64,000 nucleotides of DNA. It comes from Mnemiopsis leidyi (lineage: Eukaryota). The stretch's first letter is position 1, and each line of letters starts with the position of its first letter. The position numbers and the translations under genes were made by a program. The stretch covers positions 9,850,715 to 9,914,714 of the forward strand of contig CM108483.1 in NCBI GenBank assembly GCA_048537945.1, written 5' to 3'. Below the pieces are notes generated by a model that had not been told where the DNA came from, made no database searches, and was given only the letters and a program-made list of their open reading frames with translations. This document shows, one piece after another, positions 23,908-62,610 of this stretch.

Positions 23908-26003
23908 CATTAGGTAGGTTCATAATGACAAAATATGCCGAAATAATTACAGTACAAAGCTAATCTGTTGCTCCCTAGGCCCAATAACCACAAAAAAAAA
24001 TTTTAGGCCCCAACTCCAACGGGAAACACCTTCACCGGCCACGCCCATTTTTTGGCATCAATTTTAACAGGTAAAAATCACTAAATCTGTGTTTTGGACA
24101 TGAAGGAGTTGATTTGAGGCTCTGGAAGTGCCATACTCAAATATAAACGGTAGGAAAAGGTTAACTTTAGTCAAACTCCCAAGTCTCTAGGATGTTGGGA
24201 AATTCGGGAAACGGGAACGCGGGGCGCGGCGACGCCCCGCGCAGCTTGCGCCTCACCTGAAGGTCCTAGAGTGATGAGACTTTCACTAAAATTAACCTTT
24301 TTCTACCATTTATATTCAAGTATGACACTTTCAAGTACCTCAGTTCACTCTTTCCTATCCAAAATGGCAATTTTACGAATTTTATGTGTTATTGTTTGAG
24401 ACATTGTACGCAAATTTGCTGTTATAAAATAGATAGTATATCATACAAAATTTACACTCATTAACTCTCATAAAAATCTAATAAAACTGTTTTAAATCCT
24501 TCTTGGTCTTGTTCCCGTACTTCCTCTGATGAGCTTCCACCACTTGTATGAGTTCTTGGAAGCTATCCTCATCCCTTGTGATCTTTGTGTTTAACCGGGT
24601 CACAAGTCCCAAAGCCCGCTCACAGGAATCGTTGATGGGAGAGAGGTTCTTCAGTGCTGTACCCAACGTCACATACTCGGGTTGCTCGTTCCAGTCAGGC
24701 TTGGAGAGGAAGTCAAGGGGGGTCTTCAGTAAGTCGAAGAGAAGAGTGGAACGTTCTCCGACAAAATCAACCAGCTCTGATTTCTGGCTGATGGAAGGTA
24801 GGGTAGGCTTCCTGATCTCGACCCATCCTGAGCTTAGTTGAGCAATCCTCTGGGCTATTAGAGTCCGGGTCTGCAGGGAGAGCTGGTCATCGAATAGCAC
24901 AAGGGGAATGAGGTCCTCAGTTAGGTACCAGGTGTGACGAAGAAGAGAGTTGATGAAGGAGAGGAGATCTTCTTTTTCTCTCTGATAGGAAGGAGGAATG
25001 ACAGGGAAGATGAAGGAATCCAGATCCAGGGAATCCCATGAGGTCTTTAGGACTTTAAAGAGTGTGACCTCGGGTGACTTGGTTTCACCGAACAGTTCTG
25101 TGAATGCTGCTCCGACCACGAGTTCGGAAATCAGAGCTGGTTGATTTTGTCGGAGAACGTTCCACTCTCCTCTTCGACTTACTGAAGACCCCCCTTGACT
25201 TCCTCTCCAAGCCTGACTGGAACGAGCAACCCGAGTATGTGACGTTGGGTACAGCACTGAAGAACCTCTCTCCCATCAACGATTCCTGTGAGCAGGCTTT
25301 GGGACTTGTGACCCGGTTAAACACAAAGATCACAAGGGATGAGGATAGCTTCCAAGAACTCATACAAGTGGTGGAAGCTCATCAGAGGAAGTACGGGAAC
25401 AAGACCAAGAAGGATTTAAAACAGTTTTATTAGATTTTTATGAGAGTTAATGAGTGTAAATTTTGTATGATATACTATCTATTTTATAACAGCAAATTTG
25501 CGTACAATGTCTCAAACAATAACACATAAAATTCGTATAATTGCCATTTTGGATAGGAAAGAGTGAACTGAGGTACTTGAAAGTGTCATACTTGAATATA
25601 AATGGTAGAAAAAGGTTAATTTTAGTGAAAGTCTCATCACTCTAGGACCTTCAGGTGAGGTGCAAGCTGCGCGGGGCGTCGCCGCGCCCCGCGTTCCCGT
25701 TTCCCGAATTTCCCAACATCCTAGAGACTTGGGAGTTTGACTAAAGTTAACCTTTTCCTACCGTTTATATTTGAGTATGGCACTTCCAGAGCCTCAAATC
25801 AACTCCTTCATGTCCAAAACACAGATTTAGTGATTTTTACCTGTTAAAATTGATGCCAAAAAATGGGCGTGGCCGGTGAAGGTGTTTCCCGTTGGAGTTG
25901 GGGCCTAAAATTTTTTTTGGTGGTTATTGGGCCTAGGGAGCAACAGATTAGCTTTGTACTGTAATTATTTCGGCATATTTTGTCATTATGAACCTACCTA
26001 ATC
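23908..26003. mobile_element. Large near-perfect palindrome: ~870-bp inverted arms (23908-~24780 and ~25130-26003) around a ~350-bp unique spacer. Possibly a long-TIR or foldback DNA transposon, or an inverted duplication.
   Basis: The sequence at 23925-24530 is the exact reverse complement of 25380-25990. The duplicated ORFs at 24548..24841 (+) and 25085..25363 (-) are identical for 76 aa. The arm tips are attaggtaggttcat. The flanks are …catcctc|arm and arm|cctcatc, a possible CCTC target-site duplication. Confidence 0.75.
24478..25130 (-). pseudogene. Transposase-derived coding fragment with a hAT-like C-terminal dimerisation domain (…DFLSKPDWNEQPEYVTLGTALKNLSPINDSCERALGLVTRLNTKITRDEDSFQELIQVVEAHQRKYGNKTKKDLKQFY*). 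A partial mirror copy lies on + at 25135-25433.
   Basis: The ORF at 24478..25257 spans the spacer and arm 1. The motif pattern (D/W…P.L..lA..L, S.ER.lg.v…R..L) resembles a hAT dimerisation domain. The first ~42 aa of that ORF lie antisense in arm 2 and are not coding. Confidence 0.4.
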
Positions 26004-26868
26004 CTCATCAATACAAACCGGCAGATCTTCAATCGGACGGGTCAAAGCGTTTATAGAGTCGTAGATCTTGTCAATACTACTTTGGATTATCACATCAATC
26101 ACATCCTTATCAAGGTCAGAAGAAAACTGTTGTCCCATGCGGGCTGATTGAGCTATGTGGATACCACCGCACTGGATCAAGTGCTCCGGAGGATCAGGAC
26201 ACACAGAGATAACTTCTGGGCGCAGTATTCCAGTCATAGCTGTGTTGTCTTTAACCTCCCCGCCTCCTCCGACGTCTGGTGAAATTGACGTTCGCCTACA
26301 TGAAACTGGTGGTAGTGCATTACGTTCAAGTTCAACAGTCGAATGTTCATATGGTAGTGAACACCTGAGTAGTTGTGTTGGTGAAGCTGACTGTGACACG
26401 GAGAAACCTGAACAGGGCGGACTTGCTGACGGGTAAATTGTAGACATTGCTGGACTTGATGATGATGAAGGTGGTGACATTGCCATGTCTGGACTTGAAA
26501 GAGACAAAGCCGGTGAGCCCAGACGACAATCATAAGCTATGGGAGGAGCTGCACACAGCTGCATCTTAATCCCTAGGTCTTTTCCCGTAAATTGTCTCGG
26601 CGTGACTGATTTGGAGGCTAAATGCGACGAGTTAGATTTGAATGAATCCGAGCTGGTCACAGTGCTGATAAAAGAGATAGTTCCAGCTGGCCCAGAATTA
26701 TGTCCGACTAACTGCGATGAAATGTCAACTTTTGATGATTCGTCTATAAACGGGTCATCTAGTTCTGAAGCCATGCCCATTCTGTGTAATGCGGCATCCC
26801 CAGCGTAAGCATCTTTGCTGCCCATTCCTAAAATAACCGGAGCTTCTGTCGATTTTGAAACCACTGAC
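25998..26868 (-). CDS. PARP4-like copy A: C-terminal exon with actin-like segment 2 (…VSKSTEAPVILGMGSKDAYAGDAALHRMGMASELDDPF…) and a Ser/Pro-rich tail. It ends at an in-frame TAG (25998-26000) that overlaps a possible donor ag|gtaggt.
   Basis: The ORF at 25998..26864 has acceptor tcctttcag. Its phase-2 junction with the previous exon (AVIR|S) is conserved with copy B (AVFR|S). Confidence 0.6.
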
Positions 26869-30396: not shown

Positions 30397-30427
<31 letters not shown>

Positions 30428-31299: not shown

Positions 31300-32260
31300 A
31301 CTTTTAAAAAGTCGATTTTCTCAATTATTAAATATTGCAAAATTTTCAAAATTCACAAACTTTTTCTTCTAATGATGACGTCATAGGGGCGTGGCCTTTT
31401 AATATTTTGAAATGAAACCTAGCCTAAAGCACGCCCCAAACAATTATCTTTTAGACCCTAGGTCGTTTTAAGCTCAATTATGTATCGTTCTTTCGTTATA
31501 AGTTGCACAAAATTGCAGACATTTCACGTGATTTTTAGTTAAAAACGTTTATCTTCATCCGCAATTATCTCGATAATGAAACAAGATAATCGACTTTTGG
31601 AAGACAGCATTCGACAGTAGAAACGATTATCTTTCGTTATCATGGTCTTCGTTTTCACTCAATCTGCATCTTAAAACAATAAAATGAACTTTGAAAAATT
31701 TGGTTTTTGAATTTTCGATAATGAAATTTTTCTAAAAATGATGACGTCATAGGGGTGTTGCCTTTTAACATTTTGAAATGAGACCGAGCCTAAAGCACGC
31801 CCCAAACGATTATCTTTTAGACCCTAGGTCGTTTTAAGCTCAATTATGTATGGTTCTTTCGTTATAAGTTGCACAAAATTGCAGACATTTCACGTGATTT
31901 TTAGTAAAAAACGCTTATCTTCATCCGCGATTATCTCGATAATGGAACAAGATAATCGACTTTTGGACGGCAGCATCTGAAAGTAGAAACGATTATCTTT
32001 CCGCATTACGATCTTCGATTTTTGCTCAGATTGCATCTTAAACCAATAAAATTAATTCTAAAAAATTTGGTTTTTGAATATTCGATGATGAAATTTTTCT
32101 AGAAATGATGACGTCATAAGGGCGTAGCCTTTCAATATTTTGAAACGAGACCTAGCCTAAAGTACGCCCCAAACGATTATCTTTAAGACCCTAGGTCGTT
32201 TTAAACCCAACTATGTATGGTTCTCTCGTTATAAGTTGCACAAAATGGCAGAGTTTGGCG
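31300..32260. repeat. Tandem satellite: ~410-bp unit x ~2.3, each unit carrying a tgatgacgtcata (CRE-like TGACGTCA) palindrome. Related gacgtcataa motifs occur at 29860-30075.
   Basis: Units start near 31325, 31735 and 32100 (…aatgatgacgtcataggggcgtggccttttaatattttgaaatga…cctaaagcacgccccaaac…). Confidence 0.8.

Positions 32261-32712: not shown

Positions 32713-32780
<68 letters not shown>
32712..32780. repeat. (TA)n microsatellite (~34 units). Other (TA)n or (AT)n tracts lie at 30400-30428 and 32268-32300.
   Basis: atatatat… seen directly. Confidence 0.95.
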
Positions 32781-40085: not shown

Positions 40086-40200
40086 TATGGTAAAAACGAT
40101 ATGTATACTATTATGAGTAATGAGAAGTGAAATGGATTTGGCTTATTCAGTAGACTTACTTTAAGTAATTTCGAGAACTTTTAAGTTGAATTTGACTCAC

Positions 40201-41298
40201 CATGTCAATCGTTTCGTACCGATGACGAATGTAATCATTACTGAAGTCGTCGTAAACGAAATCCGGCCATATCCAGTCGGTTGCAACATCACTCACAATT
40301 TGCGTTAACTGCCTTTCATCATCATCTTCATGAGAGGCGGCAACGGCACATCTTAGAACACAACAGATAACTTTTACGTAACTAAGAAACTCGCCAGAAA
40401 CGAGGTTCCCCAAACTATTGAGTCCATTTTTGAGGAGACTTTCTGATGCAATCTTGTAAATCAGATCTCCTTCCAAAATATCGTCAGTCAGAAGCTGGAC
40501 ATCGGGTCTACTGATGACTTCAAGGATGTTTTGTTTCCAAATTGTTGTTTTGTCTCCGCTGGAATTCAACTTCAATTCAACAGAAATTACTTCAAATATT
40601 TTTCTCACAGTTTGGTATATCTTGGTGCGTCTCTGTCTTGATATTGTCAACATTTTTCTATCTGAAAACTTCGACAGGATTTCGCAGAACGCATCGTACT
40701 TAATCGAGGCAAGCAGGTTGCTATACCACACGGACTCCCCCTCTGATCTTTCAGATAATTCAGTCAATTCTTTCACAAATTCTCTCTTCCTTCTATCCAC
40801 TTCAGTAAAGCCCCAGAACTCATCCTGGTCTTCCTCCTCTTTCATGGGGACCGGGAAAGATGACCGTGAAATGGGTACGTTCGATGATCGAAACCGTTCT
40901 GGACCGCTTGATGCGAACGTTGAGTAACCTACTGGCATTGACTTCTCACAAGATTGTTCCATAAGCATGTTTAGGTTTTCGGATCGATCTACCATCTTAT
41001 TTAAACTATCCTTGAATATAACTTCTTGATACTGCTTTAGTTCTTCGGCTAGTTGTAAAGTAGATCTGCTACCAAGACAGACATCCTCAATTGTTGGATC
41101 GTATTCATTTTTAGAACGAGATGAGAATTCCACGAATTCATCAATAGTAGGATGTAGATCAAGAGAGCTGGCTTGGTCATACATGACAGCATCCAAAGAG
41201 TCAGCATCTAAGTCTAGACAATCTTGAAAATTTTCTCCAGAATCATGATATGCCATTTTAACTAAAGATCCCTCGTCGACAACATCTTCAATATCCAC
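40201..41298 (-). CDS. PARP4-like copy B: large C-terminal exon (VDIEDVVDEGSLVKMAYHDSGENF…WYSNLLASIKYDAFCEILSKF…ILEGDLIYKIASESLLKNGLNSLGNLVSGEFLSYVKVICCVLR…RHRYETIDM|gtgagt)
   Basis: The ORF at 40156..41304 has acceptor ttgcag|GTGGAT and donor atg|gtgagt. It contains the domain shared with 21568-22296. Confidence 0.65.
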
Positions 41299-41397: not shown

Positions 41398-41604
41398 CTC
41401 AACTCCTTCAAGAGATGTTTCGATCTCGGTCCCACTACAAGAAGAACTATCCCATTTGTCCGAACTGGAGGATTCAGATTTAGAAGCGACATTAGATCTT
41501 CTCATCATCATAGATCTGACAGGCATAGATCTTAATTCCGGTTCAGGTTTTGACATTTTGTATCTTATTAAAGATTCTTCCTCTACTACATCTTCAATAT
41601 TCAC
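41398..41604 (-). CDS. PARP4-like copy B: repeated-module exon ([69 protein letters not shown])
   Basis: Acceptor tcgcag and donor gag|gtaagt. The same module recurs at the 3' end of the previous exon (…[50 protein letters not shown]|gtgagt). Confidence 0.65.
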
Positions 41605-42234
41605 CTGCGACAAGAAGATAGAAGTTTAACTTTTGATTATGGCGAACAATTTAAATTATATACCTCAGCTTACTACTTAAGGGACGAATGTCAAAAGTTT
41701 TCCTGTTTTTATCACATCGAGTTTGTTTTTCGGGGTCGTTCACATATGACGTCAGCAAATTTTCGGTAATCTTTACCCCCCCCTCCCCCTCCGTCATCAT
41801 TCATCATCATGACAAAAACCCTCCTTAATGTCAGAGGTAAATTACCAAAATGACATCATCACAGTCAGAACCCCTCCCCCTACGTCATCTCAAAAAACTT
41901 GATTTTTGATCTTTTAATTTGCAGTCATTTTTGAATTTTTTCATACTTTGTCAGTGAAAACACAGTATTTCACCAGATTTCTGAATCAGAATTTTTACTT
42001 GAAAATTTTCCTTCTGATTTTGTAAAATTCTGATAAAAATTTTCAGAAGAAATAAAAAATTTTCAAAAAAAGTCCTATAATCCTGAAATTTTTTGATAAC
42101 ATCATCATTTGGAAACCCCCCTCCCCCCTAGGTGATGACGTCATATCTGAACGACCCCTCATCACATCGAGTCACACAAGTCGTTTATTCCTATTCAATT
42201 TGACACTAAAGACCACGATTTTTATTGTTTGACC

Positions 42235-43726
42235 TACTACTCACCTCATCGTCTCTTATTGATGCTCCCATCTCAGTGCCACTACAAGAAGAGCTATCCC
42301 ATTTGTCCGAACTGTAGGATTCAGATTTAGAAGCGATATGAGATCTTCTCATCATCCTAGATCGTAATTCCGGTTCAGGTTTTGAAATTTTGTAGCTACC
42401 TCCGATAGACGGTCGAAGAGCGTCCTCTCCACTGATACGTTCGATACTACGACAAATAGCGGTCAATTTTTCCTCTTCATCATGTCTTGGAGGTGCCGAT
42501 TTTACGAAATAATTGTTTCTAGATGAATTCATTTTTATTTCTTCAAGTCGTAACTGTGGTGCTGCACTGAAATGACCTCCAGTGTGGGATGGAAGTGGTG
42601 GAGGCATCGGGGCTGCAGCAAATTGACCCCCATAGTGGGTATGAGGTGTTGGTCCTGCGCTGGGAGGTGGTGGCGGTGCTGCTCCAAATGAAAGTTCTGC
42701 TGGGTTAGATGAGGGCGGAGGACAACTGAATGAAGCTTTGGTCTTCGCAAGAGGTCCTGCTGATTTATATAACATCATGCTTGAGGCTGGAGAGTCAGGT
42801 TGAGAAGAGTACGTCGACAAAACCCTCTTCTTTATAAAGCCACCCGGTGCTGCACTGCCTACACGCTGAGGTGCTGCACTAGGTGCACGTGGAGGTGCTG
42901 CACCAGGTGCACGCGAAGGTGCTGCACCAGGTGCACGTGGAGGTGCTGCACCAGGTGCACGCGGAGGTGCTGCACCAGGTGCACGCGGAGGTGCTGCACC
43001 AGGTGCACGTGGAGGTGCTGCACCAGGTGCACGTGGAGGTGCTGCACCAGGTGCACGTGGAGGTGCTGCACCAGGTGCACGTGGAGGTGCTGCACCAGGT
43101 GCACGTGGAGGTGCTGCACCAGGTGCACGTGGAGGTGCTGCACCAGGTGCACGTGGAGGTGCTGCACCTGGCGGAGGCGGGGGTGCTGCACCTAGTGACG
43201 GCGGGGGTGCTGTCTTATACACGGGTGTTTGTTGAACATTGGTGTTAGTTGTAGTGACTCTGTCAGTAATTGTTCGCCGAGCCATCGATTTGCCAGCTCT
43301 TTTAGAAGGAGCAAGAGGATTGGTGAGAGTTAAAATCCCTCTTTTGGCTAGCGCCTCATCTCCAATATAAGCGTCTTTCTGGCCCATCCCAACCATAACT
43401 CCTTGATGCCTAGGTCTCCCTATAAGAGGTTGGAATAAAGCCGAAGGAGCATCTTCTCCTGCGAATCCAGCTTTGACCATGTAGCTACCCATGTCAAGAA
43501 CCAAAGGTGTACCCAACGACATAGCCTCTTCCTCTTCTTCTAATTCAGAAGAAGAGTCGTCACTCATTAGAGCAGAAACATCAACTTGGGAAGTTTCCTC
43601 AGCAAATGGGCTTTCCAGTTTTCCCAGTACAGCTATTTTACTTACAACCTCGTCTCCAACGTAAGAATCCCTGATAGACATGCCGACCATGACAGATGTT
43701 TCTGAATGTTCAGCAACCAACGACCT
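42235..43726 (-). CDS. PARP4-like copy B: ~497-aa exon. It carries actin-like repeat 1 (second half: [40 protein letters not shown]) and actin-like repeat 2 ([66 protein letters not shown]). These are followed by a 15x GAAPPRAP polyproline array, a Pro-rich region and the KPEPELRS…[12 protein letters not shown] module.
   Basis: The ORF at 42206..43720 has acceptor ttgcag|G (phase 1, completing the AGG Arg from the upstream AG) and donor gag|gtgagt. The actin similarity covers ACTB residues ~8-75 including the D-loop [12 protein letters not shown]. Confidence 0.8.
42850..43200. repeat. 24-bp coding minisatellite (gtgctgcaccaggtgcacgtggag x ~14-15) encoding (GAAPPRAP)n on the - strand
   Basis: A near-perfect tandem array with a few C/G variants that switch Trp and Arg in the spurious + frame. 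The ORFs at 42800..43195 (+) and 42859..43191 (-) are repeat-frame artefacts. Confidence 0.9.
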
Positions 43727-43932
43727 GCAACAATATCCTGTGTCTTTATTTCATTTAAATAAGTTGGTTTCATTACAATATATAAGTAATTAAAAGGTTT
43801 TACTAAAGATTGGACTAGTACTCTTCAAACAAACTGTCTAGAAATTACGTAAACAACAAAATAAAATATGAAAGATACTTAAAATTAAAAATTGGTGCCT
43901 ATCCAATCCAATCAAAGCACTCTTCATCTTAC

Positions 43933-44150
43933 CTGAACACAGCTCGTGGAGCGTCATCTCCCGCAAAACCTCCTTTTATTTTATAAGATCCTAGATCTAC
44001 AACCAGAGTAGAGTCGTCATCATCTTCCTCCTCAGATGAGGAGTCTGCTGTAGATTCATCAGAATCAGAGGATTCAGACACCATAAGATCAGCAGATGTT
44101 TCCTCTAAAAGGACAACACCAGTAACATGTTCAGGATTCTTTTCTTTTGC
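43933..44150 (-). CDS. PARP4-like copy B: acidic stretch plus actin-like repeat 1, first half (AKEKNPEHVTGVVLLEETSADLMVSESSDSDESTADSSSEEEDDDDSTLVVDLGSYKIKGGFAGDDAPRAVF-R)
   Basis: The ORF at 43929..44183 has acceptor cacag|GCA and donor ag|gtaag. It is phase-matched to both neighbouring exons. Confidence 0.75.
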
Positions 44151-57967: not shown

Positions 57968-60900
57968 TCATATGTCTTCTGCGAATGGGTTGTAATCATC
58001 TGCAAATGGGTTAGTGTCCTCCTCATCAAAAGGATTAGGAGCAGGAGAGGGGCTATCTTCAATAAAGGGATTATTGCTTTCTTCTGCAAAAGGATTTATC
58101 TCTTCCTCAGCAAATGGGTTGTTAATCTGTTTGCCATGATCTGACATTTTTGTATTGCGATTATTACCAGGACTTCTTTGAGTACTTCTAGAGGTAGGTT
58201 TAGGAGAGTGGCGACTTGGAGATCTAGATATTGACTGTGCAGGGGATTTTTGAGGTAACTGTGAGTTTTGGAAAGACCTGGTTGAGGCAGTATATACTCC
58301 ATTCTCTGGGCTTCTGAAGTTATCCTCGATTTTTGTTCCTTGTGAAGATGACATCCCAGAACTGGAAGGAATCTTTGAAGTTGACATAAAAGATTCCATG
58401 TCAAGATCAATGTCCTTGTAATAATCTCTGAAATCAGCAGCTAAATCAACATCATAATCGTCATCATTAGAGGCATTACTTTGCTCTTCATCATCGCAAA
58501 GTTCATGTATAAGAGCCATCCTATCTTCACCATTCAATGTCTTTCTCAACTCATTAAAGTTTGCTCTCCATGATTCAAAATGAGTTTGATGGTATGGAAC
58601 ATCAATAGAGATAACACGGCTTAGTATTTTTTGAGTTTTCTTTTTCATAGTTTGATCAGACTCACATAGAACACAATATTTCTGTCTCATGTGTTCGACA
58701 CAATCTGTGTGGGACAGATGAGCACAGTGGAAGATGAAAAAGGTAGTGTCTATTGGAGTGATGTACTGACAGCAAACCACACATATGTTCTTATGAATAT
58801 CAATTCCCCTGACATAATCCACCCTATCCCTCCTCAATGCACTAAAAATGTCATGCTGAACAATTTTCTTGGTACTCTCTAGAAGGACATCTTCATACAT
58901 CAAGGTGTCCAGCATGTTACCAACAACTTTCTTGATGTCTCCATACGTTTTAAATGACTTATTGGATGAGCTTTTAATGAGCTTGTCGAGTACTTTTGAG
59001 GAAGAAACAAATCCAAGCATGTTGTCAATCAATGTTTCCTGCAAGGAGATGCAATCAGTTGCTTCTCCAAGTCCAAGCAATAAATCAATCAGAGAAAACC
59101 AGTAGGATTCTTTGTCATTTTGAGAAAGTTGATCAGAGTTTCTTTGACAGAAATTGATGATTTTTATGAGAGTTTCCTCTACAAAAATAAGTTGCTTGTC
59201 CCGTATGGTGTCCCTGAGTACATCATAATACAATTTGAATGCATCCTCGAGATCACCTCTTGTTTCATAAAGGTATGCTGCAGCATCTTTCAGATTTGCT
59301 ATCAAGCACAATTCCAAAATGGCCTCAATTTTGTAACCAGTTGCAACTTTAAGGTAAGGACACACAAATTCAGGGTTATAGCGTGACATAAGCTTGATAT
59401 AGATGTGATGGATTTCAACATTGTTTATATCAGGATCTTCAGTACCTTTACTGATGTCAAAAACACATTGCAGCAGGGAGTACAGAGTTCTGGGCTGATC
59501 ATCCAACATATAAACAATCTTTTCTATGTCCTCACTGAAGGCCTTCAAGATCAATGTTGCAGTGTCTTCATTATTAATTGCTATTAATTTCCCAATGTTT
59601 TGAACACAAGTCTCCCTTATTTTTGTCTTGACCTCTTCAGAATATGGACCATCCATAATATGATAGATATAAGAAAACACTTTATCAATTCTGCTTGTAT
59701 CAGACCAGTAACAGAAAAGAACTTTGTCATACTCTTTTCTTTTCTCGTATATGATCTCACAAACTTGATAAAATTCTGCTGATTCAGATAATGCTAGCAG
59801 TCTATCTTCATTAAACTCAGTGATTCCAATAGTGAGAACTAATTCTAACAGAGCTTGTTCCCTTTCCTCGTGACCAGTGACATCATTTGTTGCCAGACAA
59901 TCTAAGGCTTGATCCAGATACTTTTTGTCCAGATAGAATGAGTTGACTACCTTTTGACGAGCTAAGAACGTGAAAAGATGTCCAATCTGCAAAGGTGTAT
60001 AATCCTGTCCCTCTTCAATCATCACATGTAGGAGAATATCAATTACGATTTGGTGAATTGGTAGGCACATAGGATGACCGAAAGTGACACTCATCACATT
60101 GAGGAATTCTCTTGTGTCGAGCTTTAGCATCAATTTAACATATGGGTAATCTGGTTCTTGGTACAGGAGATTTTCAGTTTCACTGTGTTTACAAAACACA
60201 TTGTTAAAAACAAGATTTTGAATTCTTACAGTCTCATCAGCATCAATGATTCCCATTGTGTCCGGAATATTACCAATTAGACAGTCACTGATGTACATAA
60301 GGATAACATAGCCTACTTGCTTATGTGATTTGTCCCCTTCAATCAGTTGAGCATGTAGTATATCCAGCAGATTTGTGAGAGGTGTGGAATAGTCCATAAG
60401 ACAAGCATTATAAATAAAAAGTATAGCTTCATACATATCATACTCTTTGCACAAAATCAAAGTATTGTGGATATCAAGGTTTCTTGGGTCCAGATGCAAT
60501 ATGCACTTCTCAAAACTCTGAAGCTTGCCATTTTCTTTAAAGTATTCCAGAAGGTCCTTCATAAGAATTGGATTCAGGGAGCTGATTTTATGATTGAAAA
60601 CGAATGGTTCTAATGTTTCGTAGAACACTCTTTGAATAGCACCAATTTTTGATAGCCTTGTATAAATTTCATCATAAACAAGGTTTGTATTTTTTGTGAC
60701 TATGCTTGCATTTATGCATGTTTTCAAGGCTACCCCTAGCCTAGTAAGATCTTGCTGAGTTTCATCGATATATAGAGAGAAGATGTCAACAATAAGCTCC
60801 ATACAAACATTTTGAACTCTGTCCATATCCCGAAACACCAATGAGGAGACACCTTTTCCCTTGCCCAAGTAAAATGACAAAGTGAGTTCTAGCGCATCAG

Positions 60901-62359
60901 CAAAATGCATGTCATTCTTGAGGTCGACTATTCTCTGACGCCAAGGATTAGATGCTATTTTCATGACATCCTTGCTGCCCAAGAACCATGTACCACCTGG
61001 GTATGAACAAACCGAATTATAGCATGCATATTGAGAGGCAGCAAACATCGCTTTGCTGACATTACCACCAGTCCCCAATGATCGGTAGAAGGCAGTGTTG
61101 TAGCAGAGCCCTATGTCTGAAACATTTGCCACAGTTTGCAGACGTGATAATGTGTGAGCATCTATCAAATGTACTTTCTCAGAAGAATCCAACACAGCAA
61201 TTGTATTGGTATTGAACCAGAATATTGATATAAGTTGAAATTCCAAGCTGCAAGATTTGAGTTTCCTTAAAAATACTTGATCTCTGTTGTTGATATTAAG
61301 ACTGTACATGACAAATCTTTTGCTTCGACCAATGACAAGTTTAGGTCTGGCACAGTCAACTTCATGATAGTACCAATTTATAACAGGGAGAGTTGTTGTG
61401 TCGCCCCATAGGCGCACACTGTACTTGATGTTAGGGTATGGCTTTAGTGAAATAAGCATTACTTGCTTGAAGGTACACAAGCCAACAATACAGTAGGGAT
61501 AAAGTGGGTGATTTTTGGCTACCTTTAGTCTTTGAATGTCTAAAACTTCTCCATGGGATCCAGAAAAAAGACATGTGCTTTCAGAACCTCGGATGGATAA
61601 AGTTTTGGTAAGTCTCACATCAAAGACAGATCCCTGAGATACCATATAAAGCAAGTGGGAACGATCAATGACAACAACTTTGATAACGGTGCTATCTGTG
61701 ACTTTTACTTCTATTTTCTGAAGATGAGAATTGTTCTTCAAATTCCAGACATGTATGAAACCAGTAGCATGAGAGGCAGCAAGGATCCCATCTTCTATGT
61801 CAAGTGATGTAACAGCACCAGAATCATAAACTTTATTGTTTGTTATTTCTCCATTAACTTCACCATCAATTGTCATGGATGAAACTTTGCCTGATCTAAA
61901 TCCAATACATATCAATCGGTTTTTAATGGTGATGGAAGTTGCCTTATCGTCTCTATTACATAATCCACCAAGGAGAGACAGTCCAGTACATTTGACAACT
62001 TCACCATACAGCTTCTTTTTGGTTTTAATCTCATTCGGGATTGTTGCACCTTTCCCAAACGATGAAAATGAACTGCTTGATATGACTGACATAAGATCAT
62101 CTTCAGCAAGAAGTACATTGTCAATATCCTCCCTTAAATCACTGTCAAGTAATGTTATAGGATCATCTTGAGACAATATTTCTTCAAGAGAAGGTAAAAC
62201 TGCAATTTCAGGGATATCAAAATCCTCAAGACCAGAGTTTAGGGATTCTGTATCATGTTCCTCAACAATCTTTTTCAATTGCTGGTTAATCAATTCAGTT
62301 GCTTTGTCTTCAGTATCACGCAACTTGATATCATCCATGACATACCTGAATAATATCAC
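57968..62359 (-). CDS. VPS8: VPS8 (vacuolar protein sorting 8; CORVET subunit), a single uninterrupted ~1450-aa ORF. The start is more likely MDDIKLRD at 62330. It has N-terminal WD40-like, central helical and C-terminal RING-H2 (CVVCCQYI…FHCAHLSHTDCV…CVLC) regions, then six NPF motifs at the C-terminus.
   Basis: The ORF at 57968..62359. The domain order and the RING-H2 spacing match VPS8. The C-terminal tail is NPFAEEEINPFAEESNNPFIEDSPSPAPNPFDEEDTNPFADDYNPFAEDI*. Confidence 0.85.
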   Translation of the reverse strand: MILFRYVMDDIKLRDTEDKATELINQQLKKIVEEHDTESLNSGLEDFDIPEIAVLPSLEEILSQDDPITLLDSDLREDIDNVLLAEDDLMSVISSSSFSSFGKGATIPNEIKTKKKLYGEVVKCTGLSLLGGLCNRDDKATSITIKNRLICIGFRSGKVSSMTIDGEVNGEITNNKVYDSGAVTSLDIEDGILAASHATGFIHVWNLKNNSHLQKIEVKVTDSTVIKVVVIDRSHLLYMVSQGSVFDVRLTKTLSIRGSESTCLFSGSHGEVLDIQRLKVAKNHPLYPYCIVGLCTFKQVMLISLKPYPNIKYSVRLWGDTTTLPVINWYYHEVDCARPKLVIGRSKRFVMYSLNINNRDQVFLRKLKSCSLEFQLISIFWFNTNTIAVLDSSEKVHLIDAHTLSRLQTVANVSDIGLCYNTAFYRSLGTGGNVSKAMFAASQYACYNSVCSYPGGTWFLGSKDVMKIASNPWRQRIVDLKNDMHFADALELTLSFYLGKGKGVSSLVFRDMDRVQNVCMELIVDIFSLYIDETQQDLTRLGVALKTCINASIVTKNTNLVYDEIYTRLSKIGAIQRVFYETLEPFVFNHKISSLNPILMKDLLEYFKENGKLQSFEKCILHLDPRNLDIHNTLILCKEYDMYEAILFIYNACLMDYSTPLTNLLDILHAQLIEGDKSHKQVGYVILMYISDCLIGNIPDTMGIIDADETVRIQNLVFNNVFCKHSETENLLYQEPDYPYVKLMLKLDTREFLNVMSVTFGHPMCLPIHQIVIDILLHVMIEEGQDYTPLQIGHLFTFLARQKVVNSFYLDKKYLDQALDCLATNDVTGHEEREQALLELVLTIGITEFNEDRLLALSESAEFYQVCEIIYEKRKEYDKVLFCYWSDTSRIDKVFSYIYHIMDGPYSEEVKTKIRETCVQNIGKLIAINNEDTATLILKAFSEDIEKIVYMLDDQPRTLYSLLQCVFDISKGTEDPDINNVEIHHIYIKLMSRYNPEFVCPYLKVATGYKIEAILELCLIANLKDAAAYLYETRGDLEDAFKLYYDVLRDTIRDKQLIFVEETLIKIINFCQRNSDQLSQNDKESYWFSLIDLLLGLGEATDCISLQETLIDNMLGFVSSSKVLDKLIKSSSNKSFKTYGDIKKVVGNMLDTLMYEDVLLESTKKIVQHDIFSALRRDRVDYVRGIDIHKNICVVCCQYITPIDTTFFIFHCAHLSHTDCVEHMRQKYCVLCESDQTMKKKTQKILSRVISIDVPYHQTHFESWRANFNELRKTLNGEDRMALIHELCDDEEQSNASNDDDYDVDLAADFRDYYKDIDLDMESFMSTSKIPSSSGMSSSQGTKIEDNFRSPENGVYTASTRSFQNSQLPQKSPAQSISRSPSRHSPKPTSRSTQRSPGNNRNTKMSDHGKQINNPFAEEEINPFAEESNNPFIEDSPSPAPNPFDEEDTNPFADDYNPFAEDI

Positions 62360-62610
62360 ATGTTTACTAATGAAGTTGAGGCCTAGACTAGCAAGCCCAG
62401 TGGCATAAATTTTAAAATTGGCTAGGAATGCGAATTCACGGGCTCATTTTGGCTTTTTTGCTAATTCCACTCTCGTTCACGTGGCCTATTTCATAACAGT
62501 ACCAATTAAGATGGCCTAGTAGCGGTATGAGCAAGCATAATCAAGTAACAGGAAAAACAGCAATAGTTAGACTGTGGAAGTAATGTCATCAAAAAAGCTA
62601 TTGGAAATAA

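Follow-up and report, generated by a model that had tools for sequence, protein, structure and literature searches.

The 64,000-nucleotide stretch of Mnemiopsis leidyi DNA considered here (contig CM108483.1, positions 9,850,715 to 9,914,714; hereafter the window) carries a 24-bp tandem array within an exon of a PARP4-like gene. That gene (copy B) is the upstream member of a tandem pair, the other member (copy A) lying on the same, minus, strand at about 38.0-21.5 kb. The array is a real in-frame coding minisatellite, a known class of sequence. On balance, we favor the view that it encodes a length-constrained spacer, prone to adopt the polyproline-II conformation, in an exon whose product is predicted to be disordered.

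Tandem Repeats Finder (TRF) places the array at 42862-43212 and reports 14.6 copies, 93% matches, no indels, and a score of 546. With its edge units included, the array runs in register from 42857 to 43216. The core is nearly perfect. If up to three mismatches are allowed, GGTGCAGCACCTCCACGTGCACCT has 12 matches, all on the minus strand, all contiguous (42881-43168), and none elsewhere in the 64 kb, while the expectation from 100 shuffles is zero. Nine of these twelve units are exactly GGTGCAGCACCTCCACGTGCACCT, two differ by one synonymous A>G change, and one carries a C>T change of Pro to Ser in addition to the same A>G, so the core encodes eleven copies of GAAPPRAP, ten of them in an unbroken row, and one of GAAPSRAP. 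Three to four degenerate units form the edges: KTAPPPSL and GAAPPPPP on the 5' side and SAAPQRVG on the 3' side. A preliminary description had located a near-perfect 24-bp array here, and rightly so. The unit it gave, gtgctgcaccaggtgcacgtggag, is the right unit with the right period, written as a rotated reverse complement of GGTGCAGCACCTCCACGTGCACCT; the coding strand is the minus strand. Its product, (GAAPPRAP)15, overstates the twelve core units and their uniformity, and the C/G differences it saw between units are in fact transitions (T/C and G/A on the plus strand).

On the coding strand, the array lies in a frame that is open for 504 codons (42206-43720), and none of its units shifts the frame. 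The array thus has what defines a coding minisatellite: a period (24) that is a multiple of three, several copies head to tail, an open frame, and a place inside an exon of a real gene. That exon, called here the tail exon, extends over 1,480 nucleotides (42245-43724, minus strand), from an acceptor AG at 43726-43725 (ttgttgcAG, followed by G) to a donor GTGAGT at 42244-42239 (preceded by GAG). The exon before it ends in GCTGTGTTCAG at 43933, with a donor GTAAGA beginning at 43932, and the two exons join in frame, thereby completing across the intron the first of two actin-like modules that precede the array. An independent gene model, P0150 (UniParc UPI0004EA5606), comes from another assembly of the same species and was reached through the sequence cluster of the last exon. 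Outside a gap within the array, it is 100% identical to the spliced reading over both exons, confirming both junctions of the tail exon as well as the frame. P0150 is also a chimera, joining the 3' half of copy B to 5' exons of copy A (it maps to 46324-39692 and 37072-35709 of the window). The array is taken to be coding because of the 504-codon open frame, the canonical splice sites, the agreement of P0150 with that frame, and the purifying selection that acts on the flanks.

The window as a whole was read as eukaryotic because it has 31-46% G+C (in 2-kb windows) and exon-sized open frames between GT-AG introns. Upstream of the tail exon, Pfam profiles recognize a BRCT domain in two 5' exons (25.0 bits against a cut-off of 21.3), a PARP catalytic domain (31.7 against 26.7), a VIT domain (86.6 against 26.5), and a VWA_3 domain (30.7 against 27). 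The H-Y-E residues of the PARP domain, seen by eye alone, lie in LYHAT, GIYFS, and REFCIF. The upstream exons match, in collinear order, a scallop protein that bears the name PARP4-like (E = 9e-94), and the nearest named homologues are from scallop (32% identity) and bdelloid rotifers (29-30%). Judged from these matches, the array-bearing gene has BRCT-PARP-VIT-vWA, the defining architecture of PARP4. After the vWA domain come, in order, two actin-like modules, the array, a second proline-rich stretch, Ser-rich segments, and a C-terminal domain predicted to be all-helical. This last domain is the defining trait of the family. The C-terminal MINT domain of human PARP4 is helical and docks inside the vault (PMC12280208), and the model of the domain encoded by the window is likewise all-helical, though at low confidence (predicted local distance difference test, or pLDDT, of 41.8). 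A profile search of PDB sequences with the domain gave no match, nor did Foldseek (best E = 0.77).

How old is the array? A homology search with the product of the exon picked out two true relatives (P0001 and P0002) among many actins, and a search with the last exon added more. Loci of relatives were taken from long-read assemblies in the European Nucleotide Archive (ENA): one sample provided L001 and L006, a second L002 and L004, and a third L005. Exons and introns alike run collinear with those of the window, the identity being about 70-72% for introns and about 80% for exons. TRF finds a 24-bp array at the homologous position in four of them, with 13.6 copies in L001, L002, and L004 and 15.1 copies in L006, so that the count over all five array loci, the window included, lies between 13.6 and 15.1. 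The five arrays align in register and have one 24-nucleotide master unit in common. In the flanks of the array, the proportion of synonymous differences (pS) between the window and its relatives is 0.49-0.56, corresponding to a synonymous divergence (dS) of about 0.8-1.0. Since the array is in register and built from the same master unit in relatives whose flanks have diverged to this extent, it is older than the split of the window species from the sampled relatives. The preliminary description had offered that the array must be young or homogenized. It is not young; its near-perfection in the window is the result of recent homogenization specific to that lineage.

The arrays of the other loci are less uniform. 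In L001 and L006, GAAPPPPP alternates with GAAPPRAP to make a 48-bp super-unit. Several units of L002 are variant, and an 18-bp deletion in its array preserves the frame; L004 has seven units of the type GAAPPRAA (one of them GAAPSRAA) and three of the type AAVPPPPP. The sequence PPRAS occurs three times in P0149 but once in P0001. Such spread of a variant over several units within one lineage is what marks concerted evolution. L001 (62x) and L006 (48x), from a sister species, are collinear with 96-97% identity over about 10 kb and are most likely either two haplotypes or duplicates of very recent origin. The difference between their arrays is exactly 16 residues, or one 48-bp super-unit, with 13 units in one and 15 in the other, both in frame. 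This lends indirect support to the suggestion of the preliminary description that the unit count would be polymorphic, although over the five loci the count is held in a much narrower range than that description led one to expect. The 48-bp difference, like every unit in the window, preserves the frame. For the window species itself, a contig (L003) from read set SRR16531664 is 99.06% identical to the window but only over the last exons, an exact look-up of the exon product in public assemblies gave no match, and a scan of Joint Genome Institute (JGI) metagenome contigs with the alignment of the last exon found no relatives.

The more distant L005 has the same two actin-like modules, but the 24-bp array is replaced by an 18-bp minisatellite, (YAQAPV)x7.4, with 98% identity between copies (L005 7837-7970). 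Adjoining it is a nonrepeated proline-rich stretch of 53 residues that contains PPPPPRAP and PPPPGAAPP, bringing the low-complexity sequence in the same gap to a total of about 97 residues. These sequences suggest that the 24-bp array arose by amplification of a stretch like that of L005, and they suggest as well that this position in the tail tolerates or favors about 100-125 residues of low-complexity chain. The single GAAPP of L005 is encoded by the same 15 nucleotides as in the master unit. The idea that the master unit actually derives from this stretch was considered and set aside as marginal: the best 24-mer matches at 20 of 24 positions, a score reached by 12 of 300 codon shuffles.

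What, then, do the arrays preserve? The window array is 36% Pro and 34% Ala, and among the array loci these values range over 34-43% and 32-42%, respectively. It is length and composition that are kept, not motifs. Scanned by standard definitions, the arrays of the window and its four array-bearing relatives contain no SH3 motif of class I (+xxPxxP) or class II (PxxPx+), and no EVH1 ([FWYL]PxphiP), PPxY, or PPLP motif (one PPLP lies elsewhere in the tail exon of the window). The 126 residues of the window array offer 13 bare PxxP cores and 11 PPR; the latter is the loosely defined group III WW motif, a likeness too weak to count. In L004, a change of RAP to RAA has removed the PxxP core from seven units. 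The tracts of formin FH1 regions, Ena/VASP, and WASP act through runs of about five or more prolines, which bind profilin, or through defined SH3 or EVH1 motifs. Like these tracts, the array consists of iterated short proline-rich units with Gly/Ala spacers, prone to polyproline-II and adjacent to an actin-related element. Unlike them, it has no proline run longer than PP in its core units, and canonical motifs are neither present nor kept, so the likeness is one of composition. Since the window array has a single run of at least five prolines (the whole exon has two), it does not qualify as a profilin tract of the FH1/VASP type. Thus, the ligand for profilin, SH3, or WW domains proposed in the preliminary description finds support in the composition of the array and in its lack of a predicted fold but not in its motifs.

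Because composition and length are kept and motifs are not, a spacer is favored over a specific ligand. According to this model, a short proline-rich stretch was amplified into the array, whose repetitiveness would then be upheld by replication slippage, unequal exchange, or conversion within the array. The same processes would spread variants of the unit in each lineage, one of them coming near fixation in the window genome. Selection would act on composition and on total length (13-15 units everywhere) and not on a specific peptide motif. The product, about 110-125 residues of unstructured chain rich in Pro, Ala, and Gly, would separate the actin-like modules from the remainder of the tail and the C-terminal helical domain. 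Structure prediction is consistent with this model: AlphaFold2, given the product of the tail exon and two relatives, returned a mean pLDDT of 40.7 and no secondary structure, with values of 50-61 for the array and about 35 for the actin-like modules.

Several considerations weigh against the spacer. An alignment of three sequences is shallow, and low confidence from AlphaFold under such conditions is weak evidence of disorder. The constraint on length rests on five loci, perhaps three to four species, three of them closely related. Arg is retained in most units, which is not required of a pure spacer. More generally, the case for a spacer is built on sequence and predicted structure. Finally, the synonymous sites of the array are more conserved than neutral concerted evolution of a spacer would predict. 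When the window was compared with L001, L002, and L004 at protein-conserved codons for Gly, Ala, Pro, and Arg (CGN), third bases were identical in 90-94% of cases within the array (77/86, 85/90, and 76/83) but in only 53-60% of cases in the flanks (39/74, 38/63, and 42/70). The master unit is unchanged between lineages at all eight of its synonymous sites. If the array is counted as a single evolving unit, the chance of this is about 0.57^8, or about 0.01. Neutral concerted evolution makes the units of one genome alike; it does not make species diverge more slowly. A preference for codons ending in A or T explains part of the conservation, and the rest may be due to chance or to some constraint. 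The array does fold far better than shuffled sequence (z = -5.2 as RNA and -4.0 as DNA), and selection of codons for folding was considered. It was rejected: 36-62% of synonymous recodings of (GAAPPRAP)12 fold equally well or better, so the self-complementarity of the array is a by-product of codons for Gly, Ala, and Pro.

The alternative that fares best, though it seems to us unlikely, holds that the array is after all a multivalent ligand for profilin, SH3, WW, or EVH1 domains, recruiting actin-regulatory or signaling proteins beside the actin-like modules. Its position directly after these modules is what one would expect, as are the PxxP cores and PPR sequences counted above, and relatives retain several GAAPPPPP units with four to five consecutive prolines. 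Also, mouse Parp4 and Mvp appear in a table of proteins pulled down by Ena/VASP baits, though not as known interactors (PMC9581539). The absence of defined motifs from the array is difficult to reconcile with such a role, and homogenization in the window genome went in the wrong direction, exchanging units of the PPPPP type for PPRAP and leaving the single long run of prolines. With the loss of PxxP from seven units in L004, no candidate motif is kept across lineages.

Perhaps the array has no function at all. On this account, somewhat less probable still, it is a neutral expansion tolerated in a disordered region, and the similar lengths in different loci reflect shared ancestry and a low rate of slippage. 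The ratio omega of nonsynonymous to synonymous change in the array is indeed near 1 (0.75-1.5 between the window and its relatives and 2.7 between L002 and L004), compared to about 0.10-0.13 for the actin-like modules and 0.42-0.51 for the remaining tail, and no motif is kept across loci. Repeats elsewhere in these tails come and go, witness the YAQAPV array and a 45-bp repeat present in 1, 2.3, 2.6, or 5.6 copies. However, the number of units can evidently shift fast (13 against 15 at 96-97% identity), and yet it stays within 13-15 over a dS of about 0.9. The gap in L005 has a similar length despite being filled by a different repeat, and the unusual conservation of synonymous sites in the array is not what neutrality would lead one to expect.

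The 45-bp repeat is a second coding repeat of the relatives. It contains FSFG, as in the FxFG repeats of nucleoporins, and occurs at L001 10866-10981, L006 6917-7032, L002 10863-10966, and L004 9004-9255, in 2.3, 2.6, and 5.6 copies among the relatives. In the window, it has a single-copy counterpart, the second proline-rich stretch (42557-42700, minus strand), which is not repeated and includes APMPPPLPS.

The array is found in only one member of the tandem pair. From the PARP exons to the first actin exon, the DNA of copy A and copy B is 84-93% identical, introns included, and 77% identical in the region of the BRCT exons. Over the tail exon, no DNA similarity between the copies was found, and it returns only patchily in the last exon. 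At the protein level, the tail exons align only over their first 52 residues, with 35% identity. The tail exon of copy A (25998-26864, minus strand) encodes half of an actin-like module and then sequence rich in Ser and Pro; it contains no tandem array. Both the restriction of the array to copy B and the unrelated Ser/Pro-rich sequence at the paralogous position, as the preliminary description had them, are therefore borne out. The tail of copy B is orthologous to the tails of the relatives. The bodies of the paralogues (53111-43931 and 38006-27047, minus strand) are closer to each other (84-93% over most of their length) than to the relatives (about 70-80%). Because the bodies are more alike than either is to the relatives, yet the tail exons are unrelated, the comparison suggests gene conversion limited to the enzymatic 5' part of the pair.

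Copy A has some features of its own. An intronic region contains a 366-bp tandem repeat (31371-32252; 2.4 copies, 90% matches), and the same region has two long microsatellites, (AT)33 at 32713-32779 and (TA)14 at 30400-30427. In the region of the copy A tail, 24478-25433 holds inverted duplicate open frames with nearly identical products (24548-24841 on the plus strand and 25085-25363 on the minus; 24478-25257 on the minus strand and 25104-25433 on the plus), which may be the remnant of a transposon. A talin-like fragment in the copy A tail was dropped, as its 14.3 bits fell short of the cut-off (27) and it had no match in the PDB.

The actin-like modules of copy B bring us to the remainder of the tail. 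The first half of module 1, STLVVDLGSYKIKGGFAGDDAPRAVF, lies at the end of the preceding exon (43935-44012, minus strand) and its second half at the start of the tail exon (43604-43696), the intron splitting the module. Module 2, which begins PLVLDMGSY, occupies 43313-43507 on the same strand, covers positions 6-65 of the Pfam Actin profile with 45.1 bits (cut-off 27), and ends 32 codons upstream of the array, in accord with the earlier observation that the array directly follows sequences mimicking actin. Each of the two modules copies roughly residues 8-70 of actin, including the sequence of the D-loop. Purifying selection acts on both (omega about 0.10-0.13 at a dS of about 0.8-1.0), and neither is predicted to fold alone. 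Fragments of other conserved proteins are found in the tails of VIT-vWA relatives (P0121, P0122, P0123, P0137, and P0147, the last from L005 9995-11041). Fragments in paralogues or relatives that exceed Pfam cut-offs include near-perfect ubiquitin ending in LRLRGG (92-152 bits), a piece of the substrate-binding domain of Hsp70 (64 bits), and, in P0147, the SNARE motif of synaptobrevin (38.7 bits against a cut-off of 26.4; E = 2e-4 against VAMP2). Linkers of Pro, Ser, and acidic residues follow or separate these fragments.

The last exon of the family contains NEYDPTIED, found at 41083-41109 of the window (minus strand), with two copies in each of P0143, P0144, and P0145 (in P0145, one copy reads NEYDPAIED) and a single copy in P0147. 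Within it lies EYDPTIED, which we take to be the sequence of Ras switch I. The best match of EYDPTIED in the PDB is switch I of Rac1, with E of about 0.8, the sequence being too short for statistical support. Fragments of Ras switch I and VAMP in the last exon of the window itself were considered but not accepted: phmmer against the PDB returned nothing relevant, so that Ras switch I is no more than a lead, and VAMP is significant only in P0147.

Actin, ubiquitin, Hsp70, VAMP, and Ras are all well known as proteins that bacterial toxins or viral proteases attack. The family has fragments of host proteins embedded in a defense-associated protein, as is characteristic of integrated decoys. Because the fragments resemble targets of toxins, the actin-like modules are under purifying selection, and the paralogues differ only in their tails, we tentatively raise the possibility that a vault PARP, in an invertebrate-type PARP4-like family, has acquired an integrated-decoy tail, in which baits (the actin D-loop twice, ubiquitin, Hsp70, VAMP, and possibly Ras switch I) would be spaced by linkers. 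What would be sensed is a toxin or protease modifying or cleaving one of these baits. The array would be the main spacer, keeping the baits away from the vWA body on one side and from the C-terminal anchoring domain on the other. One would then see tandem paralogues with a homogenized enzymatic body, differing tails, and fast-evolving low-complexity linkers. The literature that was searched contains no description of PARP4-like proteins with integrated fragments of actin, ubiquitin, or SNAREs.

If the tail is a decoy or tripwire, the array might itself be a bait, mimicking a proline-rich region of some host protein. The company it keeps, fragments of actin (with an omega of about 0.1), ubiquitin, Hsp70, and synaptobrevin, lends the idea some appeal, as do the proline-rich stretches that follow modules in several paralogues. 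We nevertheless regard it as improbable. No host protein with a tract resembling GAAPPRAP was identified, the unit drifts between lineages (omega 0.75-1.5) while the actin-like modules do not, and in L005 a different repeat, YAQAPV, occupies the same place.

P0150 does not have the complete array. It lacks 82 residues, or 246 nucleotides (10.25 units), the gap extending from between G and GTGCAG in the first unit to between GGTGCAG and C in the tenth core unit. We infer that the gap is a predicted GT...AG intron, not an allele, and that the intron was probably placed to bridge a repeat left unresolved. This lends indirect support to the warning of the preliminary description that the array is prone to assembly collapse. 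The remaining alternative, that the array is an assembly artefact or a GT...AG exitron absent from mature mRNA, takes its support from this gap in the same species and from the presence of both GT and CAG in every unit, and it is very improbable given that GTGCAG is a poor match to the consensus for splice donors, that 10.25 units better fit a predicted intron or a jump across a gap in short reads than a real allele, that full arrays of 13-15 units in open frame are found in five independently assembled loci, and that 350 bp is short relative to long reads. There is a lesson here for annotation: gene models and short-read assemblies mishandle such an array, and one model of this gene skips 82 residues of it.

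Beyond the tail exon, the next exon (41398-41604, minus strand) duplicates, in diverged form, the last part of the tail exon at its 3' end (42394-42245), with about 55% protein identity. Besides NEYDPTIED (41109-41083), the last large exon (40159-41298, minus strand) encodes a helical stretch that resembles VAMP (41058-40942) and also the conserved all-helical C-terminal domain. Upstream of the gene, a single open frame of 1,491 codons (57971-62443, minus strand) encodes Vps8, with a beta-propeller (225 bits) and TPR (144 bits), and ends in a C-terminal run of NPF motifs.

Parts of this picture can be recognized in other systems. Vertebrate PARP4 has a disordered region of more than 300 residues, in its largest exon (exon 30 in humans), between the vWA domain and the vault-binding domain; the region is highly variable in sequence and length, is under positive selection, and has been proposed as an interface between host and pathogen (PMC4038475). 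The tail exon of the window has a host of the same architecture (BRCT-PARP-VIT-vWA), the same position between the vWA domain and the C-terminal domain, and a similar form, a single large exon predicted to be disordered, varying between species in sequence and length yet with islands of strict conservation. It differs in its actin fragments and its 24-bp minisatellite; neither a tandem repeat nor a fragment of a host protein is mentioned in PMC4038475, a text in which the words proline, indel, and insertion are absent. The likeness is positional, and orthology of the tails is not part of the comparison.

The zinc-finger array of PRDM9 (PMC3890296) resembles the array in having in-frame units, variants that spread within the array, haplotypes that differ in the number of units, and homogenization specific to lineages. 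The units of PRDM9, however, are folded, their contact residues are under positive selection, and their copy number ranges widely, while GAAPPRAP units are eight residues of disordered chain whose number is nearly constant at 13-15. The integrated domains of plant nucleotide-binding leucine-rich repeat (NLR) proteins, NLRP1, and CARD8 (PMC7857732, PMC10249858, PMC13037943) share with the PARP4-like tails a disordered, fast-evolving stretch that copies host targets of pathogen enzymes, and the tandem PARP4-like paralogues differ mainly in that stretch. The PARP4-like backbone, though, is not an NLR, and the array is not a recognizable mimic; the likeness is one of context, known here from sequence alone.

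By itself, the array is a textbook example of a coding minisatellite, set in a disordered region. It has, however, kept its position, its 13-15 units, and the synonymous sites of its master unit while about half the synonymous sites in its flanks were replaced. Since variants still sweep within lineages, the array offers a compact and manageable system in which to study the constraints on a repeat under concerted evolution. In position, the exon that carries it corresponds to the disordered exon of mammalian PARP4 that is under positive selection, here with legible content. If the decoy pattern is true, that content would provide a concrete, testable hypothesis for the function of the PARP4 tail.

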